A stretch of DNA of 64,000 nt from assembly GCA_018304175.1 (NCBI GenBank), contig JAGVWT010000003.1:33982-97981 (forward strand), in the 5' to 3' direction. Below, one piece after another: positions 57 through 60,168 of the stretch (position 1 is the stretch's first letter; the number at the start of each line of letters is the position of its first letter). The DNA comes from Candidatus Pacearchaeota archaeon. GTDB taxonomy: Archaea; Nanobdellota; Nanobdellia; Pacearchaeales; GW2011-AR1. Both the position numbers and the translations under genes were made by a program. Under the pieces are notes generated by a model that was not told where the DNA came from, ran no database searches, and saw only the letters and a program-made list of their open reading frames with translations.

Positions 57-135
57 TTGAAAACAACCTGCTGGTTTTTTTCGATTTTCCTCAAAGCACT
101 GAACAGCGATTTCAAACTGCCTCCGAGGAAATCGC
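57..135 (-). repeat. R1 repeat copy A: 8-bp-stem hairpin (gcgatttc/gaaatcgc) plus conserved tail, ending 1-2 nt before the gatB ATG
   Basis: The reverse complement matches 36637-36707 almost exactly in the stem and the 40-nt tail (tttgaggaaaatcgaaaaaaaccagcaggtt). Confidence 0.7.
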
Positions 136-210
136 AATTTTATAAAATAAAATCAGTTTATTAAATTGTTGTTTGAGTACCACCATAAAATTTTTAAACC
201 TGCTCCTGTT

Positions 211-546
211 ATGAAAAAAATGGGATACCGATTCTTTGCATATAGGAGCAATCTTACTTTTAAAGATAGTAATAAACCATTATTTGGATATTTGCTGGCA
301 AAAGATAAAAAATCATTTGGAGATGTTCTCGATAATATGTCAGTTAATGATGTTAATTGTATTTCTAGAATTGTTGATCAAGCTAGTGAAAGTGCAAGGA
401 AAGGCGAATTACATGAAACTAAAATATCTTTAGATAAGCTGCTTGAATTGGCAAGAAGTAAAAATTTTGATGCAGATGAAGTTTACAAAGTCATATCCTT
501 AGAAGCATTCTATTATAATCAAAATCAGGCAATGTCAGTTCAATAA
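211..546 (+). CDS. hypothetical protein
   Basis: The ORF track starts at a TTG at 166; the first ATG is at 211. A TATA-like ttttataaaataaa lies at 139-152. No recognisable motifs. Confidence 0.4.
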   Translation: MKKMGYRFFAYRSNLTFKDSNKPLFGYLLAKDKKSFGDVLDNMSVNDVNCISRIVDQASESARKGELHETKISLDKLLELARSKNFDADEVYKVISLEAFYYNQNQAMSVQ

Positions 547-9601: not shown

Positions 9602-9997
9602 TTATTCTTCTACCAATTCATCAAGGCTTTTTGGTTTTCTTTTTATCTCAAGAGTGGAAAATAATAAACTCAATGTTTCTTCCAAAGGAATATTTTTGCC
9701 ATGTATATATGACGAAACCGTCTGTCGTGTCACACCTATCTGTTCTGCAAGCCATGTTTGATTTTTTCCTAGTTTCTTCAAACTATATTTTATTAAGTCG
9801 CTTAACTCTTTATTCGTATGTCTTTGACTTCTTTTTACAGCAAGATGTTCTCGATATTTGCTAAGATTCTTGAAACCTTTTTGTACAGCAAGATGTTCTT
9901 GATATTCGCTACGATTCTTGAAACCTTTTTTTACAGCAAGATGTTCTTGATATTCGCTACGATTCTTGAAACCTTTTTTTACAGCAAGATGTTCCAT
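9602..9997 (-). CDS. XRE-family HTH protein with N-terminal 16-aa tandem repeats (EHLAVKKGFKNRSEYQ x3-4)
   Basis: C-terminal HTH_3 motif LAEQIGVTRQTVSSYIHGKNIP. The N-terminal region is encoded by the 48-bp tandem DNA repeat, and the frame stays open a further 30 codons or so upstream of the annotated Met. Confidence 0.6.
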   Translation of the reverse strand: MEHLAVKKGFKNRSEYQEHLAVKKGFKNRSEYQEHLAVQKGFKNLSKYREHLAVKRSQRHTNKELSDLIKYSLKKLGKNQTWLAEQIGVTRQTVSSYIHGKNIPLEETLSLLFSTLEIKRKPKSLDELVEE

Positions 9998-10028
9998 ATA
10001 TTCGTTTAAATTCTTGAAACCTTTTTGT
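9837..10028. repeat. 48-bp tandem repeat, 4 copies plus a degenerate fifth upstream (coding, in frame)
   Basis: Unit acagcaagatgttcttgatattcgctacgattcttgaaacctttttt. Copies 2 and 3 are identical; copies 1 and 4 are diverged. Confidence 0.9.
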
Positions 10029-10169
10029 ACCTTGTCTTCTGCCTTCTGTAAGACCCCATGCAGAAGTATAAGATATGTTTATAGATTTAGCAATATCAGT
10101 TATACTATCTCCTGTTTCATACATTTCCCATGCTCTTTCTCTCTGTCTGTCTTGTATTTTTCTTTGCAT
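9957..10169 (-). CDS. small HTH DNA-binding protein (resolvase/sigma-r4-like HTH); its C-terminus reads into the tandem repeat in a different frame
   Basis: ETGDSITDIAKSINISYTSAW resembles HTH_7/HTH_23 recognition helices. Overlaps ORF 9602-9997 by 41 nt in another frame. Confidence 0.4.
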   Translation of the reverse strand: MQRKIQDRQRERAWEMYETGDSITDIAKSINISYTSAWGLTEGRRQGTKRFQEFKRIYGTSCCKKRFQES

Positions 10170-10249
10170 AGAAAAAGAGATGAAAAACCACTTATAAAAG
10201 TATCTATAAGTATAAACTATGAAGTAGTTAATTATACCTCAATTTAACA

Positions 10250-13897: not shown

Positions 13898-13937
13898 CTA
13901 AAAACCTTTAAATACGTTTTTCTTTTTCTCAAATCAT

Positions 13938-14030
13938 GTCCCGGTAGCTCAGCAGGTAGAGCACATGACTGTTAGAATTTTGAAAATTGCAGCGATCATG
14001 GGGTCGTAGGTTCGAGTCCTACCCGGGACG
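13938..14030 (+). tRNA. tRNA-Asn (anticodon GTT) with a 20-nt intron (13975-13994) at the canonical 37/38 position
   Basis: Manual fold: acceptor GTCCCGG/CCGGGAC, D-arm GCTC-AGCAGGTA-GAGC, anticodon stem CATGA/TCATG, loop CTGTTA|intron|A, T-arm GTAGG-TTCGAGT-CCTAC, discriminator G. No CCA is encoded. Confidence 0.7.
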
Positions 14031-14032
14031 TT

Positions 14033-36074: not shown

Positions 36075-36596
36075 ATGGTTTCGAGCGAGACATTCAACGA
36101 GATTGATGAATTCAGAGAAAAGGAGGACATAAAGAAACTTGAAGCAGTTTTTTTCATTTCTGGAAGGTTTTTGTCAATGCAGGAACTTGTTTCGTTGAGT
36201 GATTTGAATCCTATAATCATAAGGGAAATTATAGGGAAATTAAAGGAAAAATATAACAATGATTCTTCTGCAATTGAAATTGTCGAGAAAAATAATTTAT
36301 GGAAAATGGATGTCAAATCACAGTATCATGAGATTGTCAATAAACTAGCGACTGGAAACAGTGAATTTTCAAAAGCTGAACAGGAAACTTTGGCGATAAT
36401 TGCATATAAGCAGCCGATGAAACAAAGTGTTTTGGTTAAGATTAGGAGCAACAAAGCATACGAACACATAAAAAAATTTTATGAACTTGGATTGATAAAA
36501 AAGAAAAAAATAGGGCATACTTACGAACTCACCTTAAGCGACGAATTTTACGATTATTTCAACATCTCTGAAAATGATAAGCTTGAATTAAAATGA
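36075..36596 (+). CDS. scpB: ScpB-like segregation/condensation protein (tandem winged helix)
   Basis: LEAVFFISGRFLSMQEL...ETLAIIAYKQPMKQSVLVKIR pattern typical of ScpB. Confidence 0.5.
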   Translation: MVSSETFNEIDEFREKEDIKKLEAVFFISGRFLSMQELVSLSDLNPIIIREIIGKLKEKYNNDSSAIEIVEKNNLWKMDVKSQYHEIVNKLATGNSEFSKAEQETLAIIAYKQPMKQSVLVKIRSNKAYEHIKKFYELGLIKKKKIGHTYELTLSDEFYDYFNISENDKLELK

Positions 36597-36636
36597 AAAT
36601 AGAATTAAATAAAGCTGGTTATTTTGAGATAGGTCT

Positions 36637-36707
36637 GCGATTTCATTTTGGGCAATTAGAAATCGCCTTTCAGTGTTTTGAGGAAAATCGAAAAAAACCA
36701 GCAGGTT
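36637..36707 (+). repeat. R1 repeat copy B (hairpin gcgatttc-N15-gaaatcgc plus conserved tail), ending 6 nt before the GT2 ATG
   Basis: Nearly identical to the reverse complement of 57-135. The tail tttgaggaaaatcgaaaaaaaccagcaggtt is followed by a T7 run and the ATG at 36714. Confidence 0.7.
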
Positions 36708-36713
36708 TTTTTC

Positions 36714-37943
36714 ATGCCTGAAGCACTAACTGTTATTTATCTTGTGTATATGTTTTTGGCCCTTTATTTTTTGATGCTTTTCACAGTTCTTTTTGCCCAA
36801 AACAGAAAAGAGATTTTTTCTTTCCCAAAAGCGAAAAATAAATATTCTGTTTCTGTTTTGATTCCTGCATTCAACGAAGAAGACAGCATAGAAGGAACTG
36901 TTAAAAGTGTTTTGAATTCTGATTATAAATATATTGGGGAAGTTATAGTCATTAATGATGGTTCTACTGATAACACCTTGAAGATTGTCCGAGAATTAGA
37001 AAAAAAATATTCAAAAGTGAAAGTTCTAGATAAAGTAAATGAAGGAAATAAAGGAGCAGCCTTAAATTATGCAATTCCTTACGTAAAAGGAGATTTGATT
37101 GCTGTTGTCGATGCTGATTCTTATCCTGACAAAAATGCCTTAAGTACAATGACTGGATATTTTGATGATAAAGATGTTGGTGTTGTGACAACGAGTATTC
37201 TTGTAAGAGACAGAAATAACTTTCTCAGAAAAATGCAAGCAATTGAATACAAAGTTATTGCGTTCACAAGAAAGCTTCTTGATTTTGTAGATTCAATTTA
37301 TGTAACGCCTGGACCTCTGGCTCTTTACAACAAAAAGATTCTGAAAAAAATTGGGGGGTTTGACACTAAAAATTTGACAGAAGACATTGAGGCGACTTGG
37401 CATATGCTTCACGACGGATACAAAGTAAGAATGTCTTTTATTTCAAAGTCTACCACTGTTGCTCCGAATACTATAAAGAAATGGATAAAACAAAGAATTC
37501 GCTGGACTATTGGAGGAATTCAATGTATAATAAAATACAAAAACGTTTTGTTCAGGAAAGGAATGCTTGGTTATTTTATAATCCCTTTTTTTGCATTTTC
37601 ACTTGTCCTTGGAGTTTTTGGTTTGGGAATTTTCTTTTATAGAATTCTTAGGGGATTTTTGTCTTACTACCTGACCACAAACTACTCACTCGCTTCACAG
37701 ACAGCAATTATTGTCTTACAAGATATAAATCTAAATCCATCAATACTTAACTTCTTGGGAATAATCTTATTTTTGTTAGGGGTTGGTTTCACTTACTTTT
37801 CAATTTCCTTTATAAACAGCCATATAAAGGAAAAGGAAAACTTTTTTAGTGTTGTTTTTTATCTTCTAGTATATATTTTGCTAACACCTTTGGTGCTTAT
37901 AGTGGCAGTATACAAACTTTCGAGGAAAAAATATTCATGGTAA
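36714..37943 (+). CDS. family-2 processive beta-glycosyltransferase (PgaC/IcaA/cellulose-synthase-like)
   Basis: VLIPAFNEE, DGSTD, DADS and QRIRW (QxxRW) motifs with C-terminal multi-TM; the N-terminal TM starts at ATG 36714. Confidence 0.75.
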   Translation: MPEALTVIYLVYMFLALYFLMLFTVLFAQNRKEIFSFPKAKNKYSVSVLIPAFNEEDSIEGTVKSVLNSDYKYIGEVIVINDGSTDNTLKIVRELEKKYSKVKVLDKVNEGNKGAALNYAIPYVKGDLIAVVDADSYPDKNALSTMTGYFDDKDVGVVTTSILVRDRNNFLRKMQAIEYKVIAFTRKLLDFVDSIYVTPGPLALYNKKILKKIGGFDTKNLTEDIEATWHMLHDGYKVRMSFISKSTTVAPNTIKKWIKQRIRWTIGGIQCIIKYKNVLFRKGMLGYFIIPFFAFSLVLGVFGLGIFFYRILRGFLSYYLTTNYSLASQTAIIVLQDINLNPSILNFLGIILFLLGVGFTYFSISFINSHIKEKENFFSVVFYLLVYILLTPLVLIVAVYKLSRKKYSW

Positions 37944-47801: not shown

Positions 47802-47924
47802 TGGCCCCGATGGGATTTGAACCCACGACACCTGGATCTCTCCAACATTGTTTTTTTCGAACTTCCACGAATTAAAATTCGCGTTGTAAGAGTCCAGTGC
47901 TCTACCAGGCTGAGCTACGGAGCC
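47802..47924 (-). tRNA. tRNA-Lys (anticodon CTT) with a 49-nt intron (47838-47886) in the anticodon loop
   Basis: Manual fold of the reverse complement: acceptor GGCTCCG/CGGGGCC (one GU), D-arm GCTC-AGCCTGGTA-GAGC, anticodon stem CTGGA/TCCAG enclosing CTCTTA|49 nt|A, T-arm GTGGG-TTCAAAT-CCCAT, discriminator A. Confidence 0.6.
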
Positions 47925-48047
47925 TTTTCTGTTTTTGGCGATGTAGCGACTTGCGATTTCGTCGGAGGCAATTGGAAATCGCCTTTCCTAACGAAAAGGA
48001 AGGTGTGTGAGAGGAAACCTTGGTTTCCTTCATGAGCTACGGAGCCT
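47925..48047 (-). repeat. insert-like segment upstream of tRNA-Lys, bounded by 18-bp direct repeats of tRNA positions -4..+14; contains R1 hairpin copy C (47953-47982)
   Basis: aaaaggctccgtagctca (minus-strand reading) occurs at the real tRNA 5' end and again about 105 bp upstream (plus strand 48030-48047). The interior shares tga-Rgg-hairpin, gtcgctaca and acag(aaaa) with the tRNA-Ile insert. Confidence 0.6.
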
Positions 48048-48088
48048 TTTTCTAATTATATTGGTTAGTTAAACACTTAAATATTTTT

Positions 48089-54376: not shown

Positions 54377-54823
54377 TTATAGGTTTTTAAGTTCCTTCAT
54401 TTCTTTTTTGAAGTCGTTGACATCTTGGAAGTTTCTGTAGACAGATGCGAATCTTATGTATGCTACATTGTCGAGTTTTTTTATTTTTTTCATCGCTATT
54501 TCACCTATTGTCGAAGTTTTGACTTCTTTTTTGCCTTTTTTCCTTAATTGTTCTTCTATTTCGTTAACAATTTCTGTTATCTTTTCTTTGTTTACAGGGC
54601 GTTTTTCAAACGCCTTTTCAATGCCTCTCTCGAGTTTTTCTCTGCTGAACTTTTCCCTTGATTTGTCTTTTTTTATGACGTAAAAGTCACTGCTGTCAAT
54701 CCTTTCATACGTTGTGAATCTTTTTCTACACTTCAAACATTCTCTCCTCCTTCTTATTCCCTGAGAAGATTCTCTTTTGTTTGTTACCTTTATGCTTGTG
54801 CATGAACAGTATGGACATTTCAT
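54377..54823 (-). CDS. nrdR: transcriptional repressor NrdR (zinc ribbon plus ATP-cone)
   Basis: MKCPYCS...RRRECLKCRKRFTTYE and an ATP-cone. The likely start is MKCPYC at 54823 (the track's 54844 start adds 7 residues). Confidence 0.85.
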   Translation of the reverse strand: MKCPYCSCTSIKVTNKRESSQGIRRRRECLKCRKRFTTYERIDSSDFYVIKKDKSREKFSREKLERGIEKAFEKRPVNKEKITEIVNEIEEQLRKKGKKEVKTSTIGEIAMKKIKKLDNVAYIRFASVYRNFQDVNDFKKEMKELKNL

Positions 54824-59855: not shown

Positions 59856-60168
59856 ATAAATTAGGCAATCGGAATTCCTTGAAATTTTTTTTTAATATTT
59901 CACCTATTGTCGAAGTTTTGACTTCTTTTTTGCCTTTTTTCCTAAATTGTTCTTCTATCGATTTATCTATCTTCTCTCTTACGATATTTCTTCCATATAA
60001 AGTTAATCCCTGAACCAAAGCACCATTGCCATTTCTCCTAATCTCGTTTATCGCTTCGTCCACATAATTATTAATTTCGTTTGCGTTCCAGTTTGGAAAT
60101 CCAGCCAATATATTACTCCTTAAATCATTTTCAGTCCAGTCAAAAGTATATGGTAAATCTCTTCCCAT
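59812..60168 (-). CDS. small chimeric ORF carrying a 62-bp near-identical copy of an nrdR ATP-cone segment; possibly a gene fragment
   Basis: Encodes IEEQFRKKGKKEVKTSTIGEI. DNA 59897-59958 is about 95% identical to 54498-54559 inside nrdR. Confidence 0.4.
   Translation of the reverse strand: MGRDLPYTFDWTENDLRSNILAGFPNWNANEINNYVDEAINEIRRNGNGALVQGLTLYGRNIVREKIDKSIEEQFRKKGKKEVKTSTIGEILKKNFKEFRLPNLFNFSTSEVQSQHFP

Follow-up and report, generated by a model that had tools for sequence, protein, structure and literature searches.

A 64,000-nucleotide (nt) stretch of Candidatus Pacearchaeota archaeon contig JAGVWT010000003.1 (positions 33,982 to 97,981 of the forward strand, assembly GCA_018304175.1; hereafter the window) carries three copies of a short dispersed sequence, here named element E. 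By far the most plausible explanation of E is that it is a non-autonomous, hairpin-forming mobile element, tolerated because it disturbs expression little. E is specific to Pacearchaeota-like DPANN archaea and, as judged by comparing its copies, is old, vertically inherited at each locus and not homogenised. Tolerance would follow from its length of 78 nt, a multiple of three, from reading frames that are often free of stop codons, from the lack of an internal ATG and from landing at transcript boundaries. The fold of its forward strand is probably the feature recognised by an enzyme acting in trans.

The window was searched with the pattern GCGATTTC-N14-GAAATCGC, which occurs exactly three times (106-135, 36637-36666 and 47953-47982) against 0.01 expected from shuffled sequence. 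Copies A and B also form a 79-nt inverted repeat with 86% complementary arms (58-136 and 36636-36714). A covariance model, R1, trained on 71 family members and run over the 64 kb, recovered copies A, B and C only (scores in Table 1), and the next-best match, at 18.6 bits, was the palindromic 3′ hairpin read on the opposite strand. The density is thus about one copy per 20 kb. Folding gives three hairpins in each copy: hairpin 1 with an 8-bp stem and a 14-nt loop, a weak and variable hairpin 2, and hairpin 3 with a stem formed by an A run and a T run. Because copy C has this same three-hairpin layout, it is a complete, diverged member and not a fragment.

An earlier note, made from the letters of the window, had described three copies, the third of them partial, with loops of 14-16 nt and a conserved tail ending 1-6 nt before an ATG. 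Three copies are indeed borne out by both the pattern and R1, but the third is full length and all the loops measure 14 nt. The tail ends in a second hairpin, with the form GAAAAAAACC-agca-GGTTTTTTTC in copy B. The 3′ end of copy A lies 2 nt (AA) before the gatB start codon, and copy B ends 0 nt before the ATG of the glycosyltransferase gene GT2 (36714), with a T7 run just ahead of that ATG. The gene names given in the note hold, since GatB_N and GatB_Yqey domains are found on the full contig and GT2 was confirmed; NCBI proteins of Candidatus Pacearchaeota match both GT2 and GatB at 100% identity. The region of copy A does not differ in three more independent assemblies of this strain. As a separate observation, copies A and B are mutually inverted, 36.5 kb apart, with their gene-abutting ends facing outwards, so that recombination between them would be predicted to invert the intervening segment and exchange the upstream regions of gatB and GT2.

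Table 1. Coordinates of element E and of associated features in the window (position 1 is the first nucleotide of the window)
Feature	Coordinates	Strand	Basis or remark
gatB start codon	54..56	-	sequence; GatB_N/GatB_Yqey; orthologues start at the same ATG
Copy A of E, 77 nt	59..135	-	R1 92.4 bits, pattern match, fold
Copy A, hairpin 1	106-135	-	
Copy A, hairpin 3	59-82	-	
Native gatB promoter box, CAATTTAATAAAC	156..168	-	20 nt upstream of E; empty-site comparison, window promoter consensus
ScpB-GT2 spacer, 40 nt	36597..36636	+	between the ScpB stop (36594-36596) and E
Promoter-like box in spacer, AATTAAATAAA	36603-36613	+	predicted start at about the first base of E
Copy B of E, 77 nt	36637..36713	+	R1 90.1 bits, fold
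Copy B, hairpin 1	36637-36666	+	
Copy B, hairpin 3	36690-36713	+	
tRNA-Lys(CUU)	47802..47924	-	51-nt intron at canonical position; Rfam tRNA 56.1 bits
Direct repeat T, copy 1, TGAGCTACGGAGCCTTTT	47911..47928	.	tRNA-Lys 5′ end plus 4 upstream bases, plus-strand reading
Segment X′, GGCGATGTAGC	47937..47947	+	5 nt upstream of E
Copy C of E, full length, diverged	47953..48031	+	R1 65.0 bits, fold, coordinates
Copy C, hairpin 1	47953-47982	+	
Copy C, hairpin 2	47983-48003	+	
Copy C, hairpin 3	~48013-48028	+	
Direct repeat T, copy 2	48033..48050	.	second tRNA 5′ end; adjoins upstream promoter region

The wider family was sought in public genomes, one genome per species, using the hairpin with its GGCA loop core as query. 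At least 100 loci were found, of which 97 of those listed belong to metagenome-assembled genomes (MAGs) of Pacearchaeota, Woesearchaeota and Nanoarchaeota, often with several loci per MAG, and the remaining three are chance matches in GC-rich bacteria. R1 gave 127 matches on the listed loci, one of them a chance match in a bacterial locus (L100), which leaves at least 126 copies, spread over 97 DPANN loci of several dozen MAGs, with many copies per genome. At least about 25 of these 126 have a hairpin-1 stem of differing sequence. All family counts and percentages that follow refer to the matches listed. The consensus reads GCGATTTC-ACCGGAGGCAATTA-GAAATCGC-CGTTCAGTGCTTTGAGGAAGTTC-AAAAGAAACC-AGCG-GGTTTCTTTT; it is 77 nt long, or 78 nt (26 codons) when the usual following A is counted. 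This A occupies position +1 in 79% of copies, and a T precedes the element at -1 in 70%. The motif GAGGA at positions 44-48 is near-invariant, an internal ATG is absent, and the T run that closes the element is mostly only T4-T5. Two forward frames are free of stops in about half or more of the copies, and one reverse-strand frame is open in seven loci of the GINS gene.

Pairing in the hairpins is conserved by compensation. In hairpin 3, compensatory changes from A:T to G:C were found in seven of the ten pairs, 93.6% of cells are paired, and the pairing beats every shuffle and every slid register. Hairpin-1 stems vary with pairing kept (GTGGTATC/GATGCCAC, AGGATATC/GATATCCT, GCAGTTTC/GAAACTGC), and the loop is retained as GGAGGCAAT or AAGGTGTTT despite these changes; a covariation check of the kind proposed in the earlier note thus came out positive across the family. 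The same note had pictured the hairpin as an upstream binding site. This operator role is not well supported, since the stem changes by compensatory substitution and therefore behaves as a folded single strand and not as a fixed double-stranded operator. Paired columns contain 27 G-U against eight A-C combinations, which indicates that it is the forward strand that folds, as RNA or as single-stranded DNA. The two bases following hairpin 1 and the hairpin-3 loop covary (CG/CG, CT/AG, CC/GG, CA/TG and TG/CA), a pairing that is mutually exclusive with hairpin 3. Guide and cleavage-site pairing of the type known from the insertion sequences IS200/IS605 was considered and rejected, the covarying 4 nt lying in the hairpin-3 loop and not at the ends of E. 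Rfam 15, at gathering and permissive thresholds over the window and 13 loci, returned only tRNAs and RNase P RNA and nothing for E, with best sub-threshold E-values of 0.1 or worse, and C/D box, H/ACA and hammerhead motifs were not seen by eye. A protein-database search with a 52-residue query, made by joining the peptides of the consensus and of the Ogt copy, gave one match.

Empty sites were found for both start-codon copies of the window. Four orthologous gatB loci (L108-L111; 70-75% protein identity) have the box CAATTTAATAAAC, 20 nt and the ATG without E, and the order in the window is the same box, 20 nt, E, AA and ATG. Upstream of copy B lies ScpB, and in three loci with orthologous GT2 genes (L102-L104) the ScpB stop is found 4 nt or 1 nt before the ATG, or overlaps it, without E. 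A fourth (L101) has a 103-nt spacer between ScpB and GT2, with a canonical box, AAAGAATTAAATTT, 35 nt before the ATG, resembling the box in the spacer of the window, and likewise without E. The empty orthologous sites, together with the native box or junction upstream, identify copies A and B as lineage-specific insertions placed exactly at a start codon. Both filled and empty versions also exist at the S10 and GINS loci. E shares with transposable elements of the miniature inverted-repeat type (MITEs) its small size, non-autonomy and multi-copy dispersal, in addition to presence/absence at gatB, ScpB-GT2, S10 and GINS. The portable, MITE-like part of the earlier proposal, which spoke of a promoter/operator cassette or a MITE donating one, is strongly supported by the multiple copies and the empty sites.

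The same sites bear on the possibility that E is an independent small RNA gene, a hairpin plus tail ending at the T run, which was the alternative offered in the earlier note. The forward strand is the folding one, the element does end in a T run, and copies A and B have TATA-like boxes 20-35 nt upstream. These boxes are the host genes' own promoters, however, because the empty sites carry them. Copies in open reading frames (ORFs) and tRNA introns leave no room for a promoter, Rfam has no match and most of the T runs are short. With no consistent promoter of its own, a small RNA gene is extremely unlikely.

The position of the copies relative to genes is far from random. An ORF of at least 60 aa starts between -3 and +8 nt from the E 3′ end, in the orientation of E, in 30/93 copies, compared to 3.2% at random positions, and about a third of the copies end 0-4 nt ahead of a real start codon, oriented like the gene. 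Genes abutted in this way include S3Ae (at least five genomes, and a sixth with a diverged copy), S10 (at least three), Mre11 (at least two), L10e, PheRS-beta, EF-1beta and RFC, and in the window gatB and GT2. Other copies sit inside ORFs, in tRNA introns or downstream of stop codons, the settings ranging over coding, leader, intron and intergenic DNA, so a consistent position at gene starts, whose lack the earlier note had named as evidence against its proposal, is seen for many copies and not for all.

Copies at gene starts could be promoters. In this explanation the A-rich box in the 3′ half of E is a B recognition element/TATA box (BRE/TATA) from which a leaderless transcript starts just after E. 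The genes of the window are overwhelmingly leaderless, with A at -33/-32, T across -29 to -25 and A across -24 to -22; in the refined profile the consensus AAAAGCTTTATAAA begins 35 nt ahead of the ATG, and genes score a median of 6.3 bits. Compatible with a promoter role are the exact abutment of start codons, a profile match inside E with a predicted start at E+79 to E+81 (2-4 nt after E), the A that usually follows E and the T run before it, which together are initiator-like, and the T7 run of copy B, which could terminate read-through ahead of the ATG. One subfamily (A7) is also enriched at gene starts (14/26 vs 18/83, p=0.003). The internal match is weak, however, at 3.6-4.8 bits, and about 7% of random positions reach 4.3 bits. 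Copies away from gene starts have the match just as often, and start-abutting copies do not score higher than others (median 3.6 vs 4.7), so that the A-rich stretch, read in the earlier note as a possible TATA box, is no better at gene starts than in ORFs or tRNA introns. Furthermore, many start-abutting loci keep a canonical promoter near the 5′ end of E, with a predicted start 0-30 nt upstream of it. At gatB the native box is perfectly conserved upstream and places the start at the E 5′ end; a box upstream of the whole element comes close to what the earlier note had itself named as evidence against its proposal, namely transcription starting ahead of the element. On sequence evidence a portable promoter is therefore doubtful, and the promoter/operator half of that proposal is not well supported. 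Nor does common control of gatB and GT2 follow from a shared insertion. For copies A and B the likeliest case, at roughly even odds, is a 77-79-nt leader transcribed from the native promoter upstream, as predicted from the boxes, and the weak internal box and two Shine-Dalgarno-like boxes may aid downstream expression.

Such a leader invites the suggestion that E has been domesticated as a translation cassette, in which GAGGA would be brought 5-9 nt from the ATG by hairpin 3, or which would act by re-initiation. With hairpin 3 folded out, the spacing from the near-invariant GAGGA to the ATG would be 5 nt plus the 0-4 nt following E, and both loop variants of hairpin 1 (GGAGGC and AAGGTG) resemble Shine-Dalgarno sequences. 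E is antisense in the seven GINS loci; there GGAG or GGTG has arisen in the spacer, 7-13 nt ahead of the ATG, and E is read through by a short ORF that begins at the duplicated start. The frame-1 ORF often begins with NTG at E -2 and either ends at the ATG or runs on into the gene in frame: it fuses with gatB at copy A, and at copy B it spans 42 codons, from the stop codon of ScpB to a point 8 nt into GT2. Against this, Shine-Dalgarno-like motifs were found in only five of 68 window genes, frame-1 openness is not enriched at gene starts (23/32 vs 44/77), nine of the 32 start-abutting copies have internal stops in frame 1, and the motifs are equally conserved in copies unable to use them, as in tRNA introns and inside ORFs. 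Judged from these motifs, a translation cassette is unlikely. A conserved micro-ORF was rejected as well: NTG stands at -2 in 65% of copies, yet about 40% are interrupted by internal stops, and a change in the length of hairpin 1 leaves the peptide unconserved. Translational coupling, or an upstream ORF bridging to the gene, was likewise discarded as a general rule, being not enriched at gene starts.

At least nine copies lie in frame, stop-free and in sense orientation inside conserved genes, all nine being sense. They are found in PolB between Exo I and Exo II (at least four genomes), in Ogt between NP and PCHRV (at least two), in a methylase of the RsmB/NOP2 type (at least one) and in ERCC4/Hef (Hef/XPF; at least two genomes). 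Phase 0 applies to seven of the nine, E and one further base there making 78 nt, or 26 codons; the nested-insertion copies of L032 (+30 nt) and L033 are longer, and the latter is read in frame 1. Relative to solved homologues, E adds 26-27 residues: residues 175-177 of the Pfu enzyme align with query 241-270, and residues 112-115 of SsOGT with query 49-77. The PolB copies may duplicate a TAT codon. A further ten copies or more occupy tRNA introns, 10/10 of them antisense to the tRNA, and others adjoin tRNA 5′ or 3′ ends.

An element residing in essential genes and tRNA introns might be spliced, its fold being kept for removal from mRNAs and tRNAs. Such an intron-like RNA would agree with nucleotide-level conservation at orthologous loci, with differences among PolB copies that are not concentrated at third codon positions, with the Ogt insertion directly before the PCHRV active-site strand, and with gene-end duplicates around E that look purified by selection. 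Yet all nine copies in ORFs, including the nested ones, are in frame and stop-free, which would be unnecessary under splicing and counts against an intron. A general bulge-helix-bulge helix is lacking, flank complementarity being on average 4.8 nt against 4.5 nt in controls; a helix closing around E was found only at the tRNA, GINS and CPSF1 loci, and in tRNAs E lies antisense inside an ordinary intron. Since Rfam contains no matching ribozyme or intron family either, splicing is highly improbable.

The flanks of some copies hold a further clue. About 20 of 93 copies carry direct repeats of host sequence (T) of 15-60 nt, the downstream repeat beginning 0-3 nt after E and the upstream one ending 0-24 nt before it. 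At gene 5′ ends (GINS, tRNA-Lys and L067) the first base of T lies 0-10 nt upstream of a start codon or tRNA +1; at 3′ ends (aCPSF1 and a gene ending FDKxKFIxKLGL) it equals the last 13-16 codons. At several loci (GINS, CPSF1 and tRNA) a short segment just upstream of E, X′, is complementary to the start of T. Copy C belongs to this class. It is antisense to tRNA-Lys and located in the 5′ leader of the tRNA, its X′ is complementary to the 18-nt repeat T save for a 3-nt internal mismatch, and the second T starts 2 nt after the copy C 3′ end; the arrangement recurs in L014 and L043. As an aside, the tRNA-Lys intron (47837-47887, minus strand) reads GCGAATTTTAATTCG followed by GGAAGTTCGAAAAAAAC and resembles a degenerate sense E that R1 did not score. 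The last 15 codons and stop of aCPSF1 are present three times with E copies between them and differ only synonymously (L085:3363-3640, minus strand, and L065:2450-2780), and L065 has exact repeats of a 138-nt unit made of gene end and E. Read-through of the stop codon, leading from one gene-end copy into the next, was rejected, as the frames differ, and so were mutagenic repeats of the diversity-generating retroelement type, as the differences between duplicates are not adenine-specific.

In several respects this geometry is analogous to target-primed reverse transcription of short interspersed nuclear elements (SINEs): the 3′ junction is exact and the 5′ end untidy, the duplications vary between 15 and 60 nt, the folding strand is that of the would-be RNA, and a short inverted copy of the target stands at the 5′ end. 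E differs in having no A-rich tail and in that most copies are without a long duplication. One may speculate that E RNA is copied at a nick and that the new strand snaps back on the target, which would yield the order X′-NN-E-T, the exact 3′ junction, the variable length of the duplications and their origin at transcription start sites. No link between E and a reverse transcriptase was found. That E is a SINE-like, long-lived module spread through an RNA intermediate and co-opted by the host as a boundary or translation cassette at housekeeping gene starts is decidedly unlikely.

It must be noted that several observations weigh against a mobile, merely tolerated element. Terminal inverted repeats are absent, as the ends GCGATTTC... 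and ...GGTTTCTTTT are not inverted copies and the repeats are internal hairpins. A short target duplication of constant length could not be made out in the flanks, which show the T|A preference and, in about 20%, the variable repeats of 15-60 nt. No autonomous partner or mobilising enzyme was identified, a partner search not having been made, and the viral contigs scanned were empty of E. Orthologous copies are 0.78-0.95 identical and their coding flanks 0.70-0.80, an excess that is in part due to ascertainment because the scan required the hairpin-1 stem. In the variable part, paralogues within a genome are 0.71 identical and copies between genomes 0.67. With orthologues at 0.78-0.95 and paralogues at only 0.71, the copies are old and not recently active, and concerted evolution or a recent burst was rejected on the same figures, paralogues being no closer than orthologues. 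The identity at each locus implies constraint at the nucleotide level, beyond what a purely selfish element calls for. Finally, the duplicated gene ends differ by 55 synonymous and five nonsynonymous codons, so that the duplicates on both sides of E appear, from these comparisons, to be purified by selection. Candidate causes of the nucleotide constraint and of the synonymous-only duplicates are import of E together with an adjoining gene end out of other lineages, expression of both ends, and a host function.

A host function at the DNA level would be a maintained signal, with a single-strand hairpin or a cruciform as the site of a protein of replication, recombination or chromatin. Constraint regardless of context or of orientation to the host transcript, the density noted for the window (~1 copy per 20 kb) and the covarying hairpins would fit. 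Presence and absence at orthologous sites imply, however, that no single copy is required, the strong polarity towards genes and the exact abutment of start codons by the E 3′ end are out of keeping with such a signal, and a candidate binding protein was not found. It is accordingly a very unlikely account. GC skew was tried for relating the orientation of E to replication and abandoned, since the skew follows gene orientation only. A mobile element tolerated at transcript boundaries and in open frames remains the best explanation.

Among known systems, the Rickettsia palindromic elements (RPEs) are among the closest in behaviour. RPEs are, like E, small hairpin repeats dispersed in reduced genomes, in frame and open in unrelated housekeeping genes, found also in RNA genes and intergenic DNA, and old, being common to several species (PMC10969869). 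E is archaeal and 78 nt long, compared to about 100-150 nt for RPEs, it prefers start codons and transcript boundaries exactly, and it is conserved at the level of nucleotides and structure and not of the peptide; the likeness is one of mode of working and not of membership, and with hosts in different domains of life a sequence relationship is not expected. To our knowledge, long flanking gene-end duplications have not been described for RPEs. Correia elements of Neisseria and other bacterial MITEs that bear promoters or terminators, such as SPRITE and BOX, share with E a multi-copy distribution, mostly immediately upstream of genes, and such elements can carry promoter- or terminator-like modules and insert into each other, as E also nests (PMC10969869). 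In Correia elements the ends are inverted repeats, a TA is duplicated and promoters have been shown by experiment; neither of the first two was found for E, whose predicted box is weak. The archaeal MITEs of Sulfolobus, Halobacterium and Haloquadratum are small non-autonomous repeats like E (PMC10969869). They derive from known insertion sequence families and have matching inverted ends and short duplications, none of which was found for E. Literature searches, which lacked most subscription journals, returned no description of such an element in DPANN archaea. By analogy, E would be a previously undescribed insertion element that works like RPEs and Correia-type MITEs and belongs to neither.

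Tandem and nested copies of E occur, and E itself is a target of other small insertions. Another mini-element, about 30 nt long (GGCCCCAAAWWCAAAGGGGTCYCC..GGRG), sits nested at the same point of E, just before hairpin 3, in L032:2592-2700, L038:3200-3310 and L074:892-1000; L025 and L030 also carry it, upstream of E. The PolB copy of L032 gains ten codons by it, in frame and without a stop. Within hairpin 1 or directly after it, L015:2033-2114 and L094:4350-4444 have a further small hairpin insertion, ATGCCCTTT(TT)GAGGGTAT, and these genomes seem to host several families of tiny nested hairpin insertions. Four E copies stand in direct tandem at L068:3391-3702. Downstream of E in L068 and in L070 (near 2519) similar, G+C-richer sequence, TAGACCCAGAAGCCAGCTCAAAGAT..., was found with neither an ORF nor an Rfam match; it may be an RNA gene.

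Some neighbouring features were recorded as well. Beside gatB (window 211-546 and 562-1899), a divergent gene of 111 aa has GatD and a second GatB-like gene, probably GatE, downstream of it, so that the locus probably holds both amidotransferase systems. The eRF1 gene upstream of ScpB in L101:1-837 contains an intein (Intein_splicing, LAGLIDADG_3), and none was recorded in L102 and L103, the other two relatives in which eRF1 could be seen. At 13937-14031 ARAGORN calls a 95-nt 'tRNA-Stop (tta)' (Rfam tRNA 61.8 bits), which probably contains an intron and has its anticodon misread. Four to five tandem 48-nt repeats at 9827-10066, 66-93% identical to the reference copy (96-nt reading window), sit where ORFs of both strands overlap (9602-9997, minus; 9966-10247, plus). 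Two copies of an 87-nt direct repeat with 86% identity stand 5.4 kb apart, at 54473-54559 and 59872-59958, both of them near predicted starts of minus-strand genes.

If the interpretation of E as a tolerated mobile element is true, it is an archaeal counterpart of the Rickettsia palindromic elements. DPANN genomes are among the smallest and most compact, and a 78-nt element in PolB, Ogt, Hef, tRNAs and at the starts of ribosomal-protein genes is therefore unexpected. For annotation it constitutes a hazard, since proteins come out split, lengthened or with false N-terminal extensions, and tRNAs with odd leaders. In organisms that are mostly leaderless it also provides a natural experiment, in which 78 nt are placed between promoter and start codon. 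The purified gene-end duplicates and the target-complementary segment, moreover, may point to an undescribed mode of mobility.

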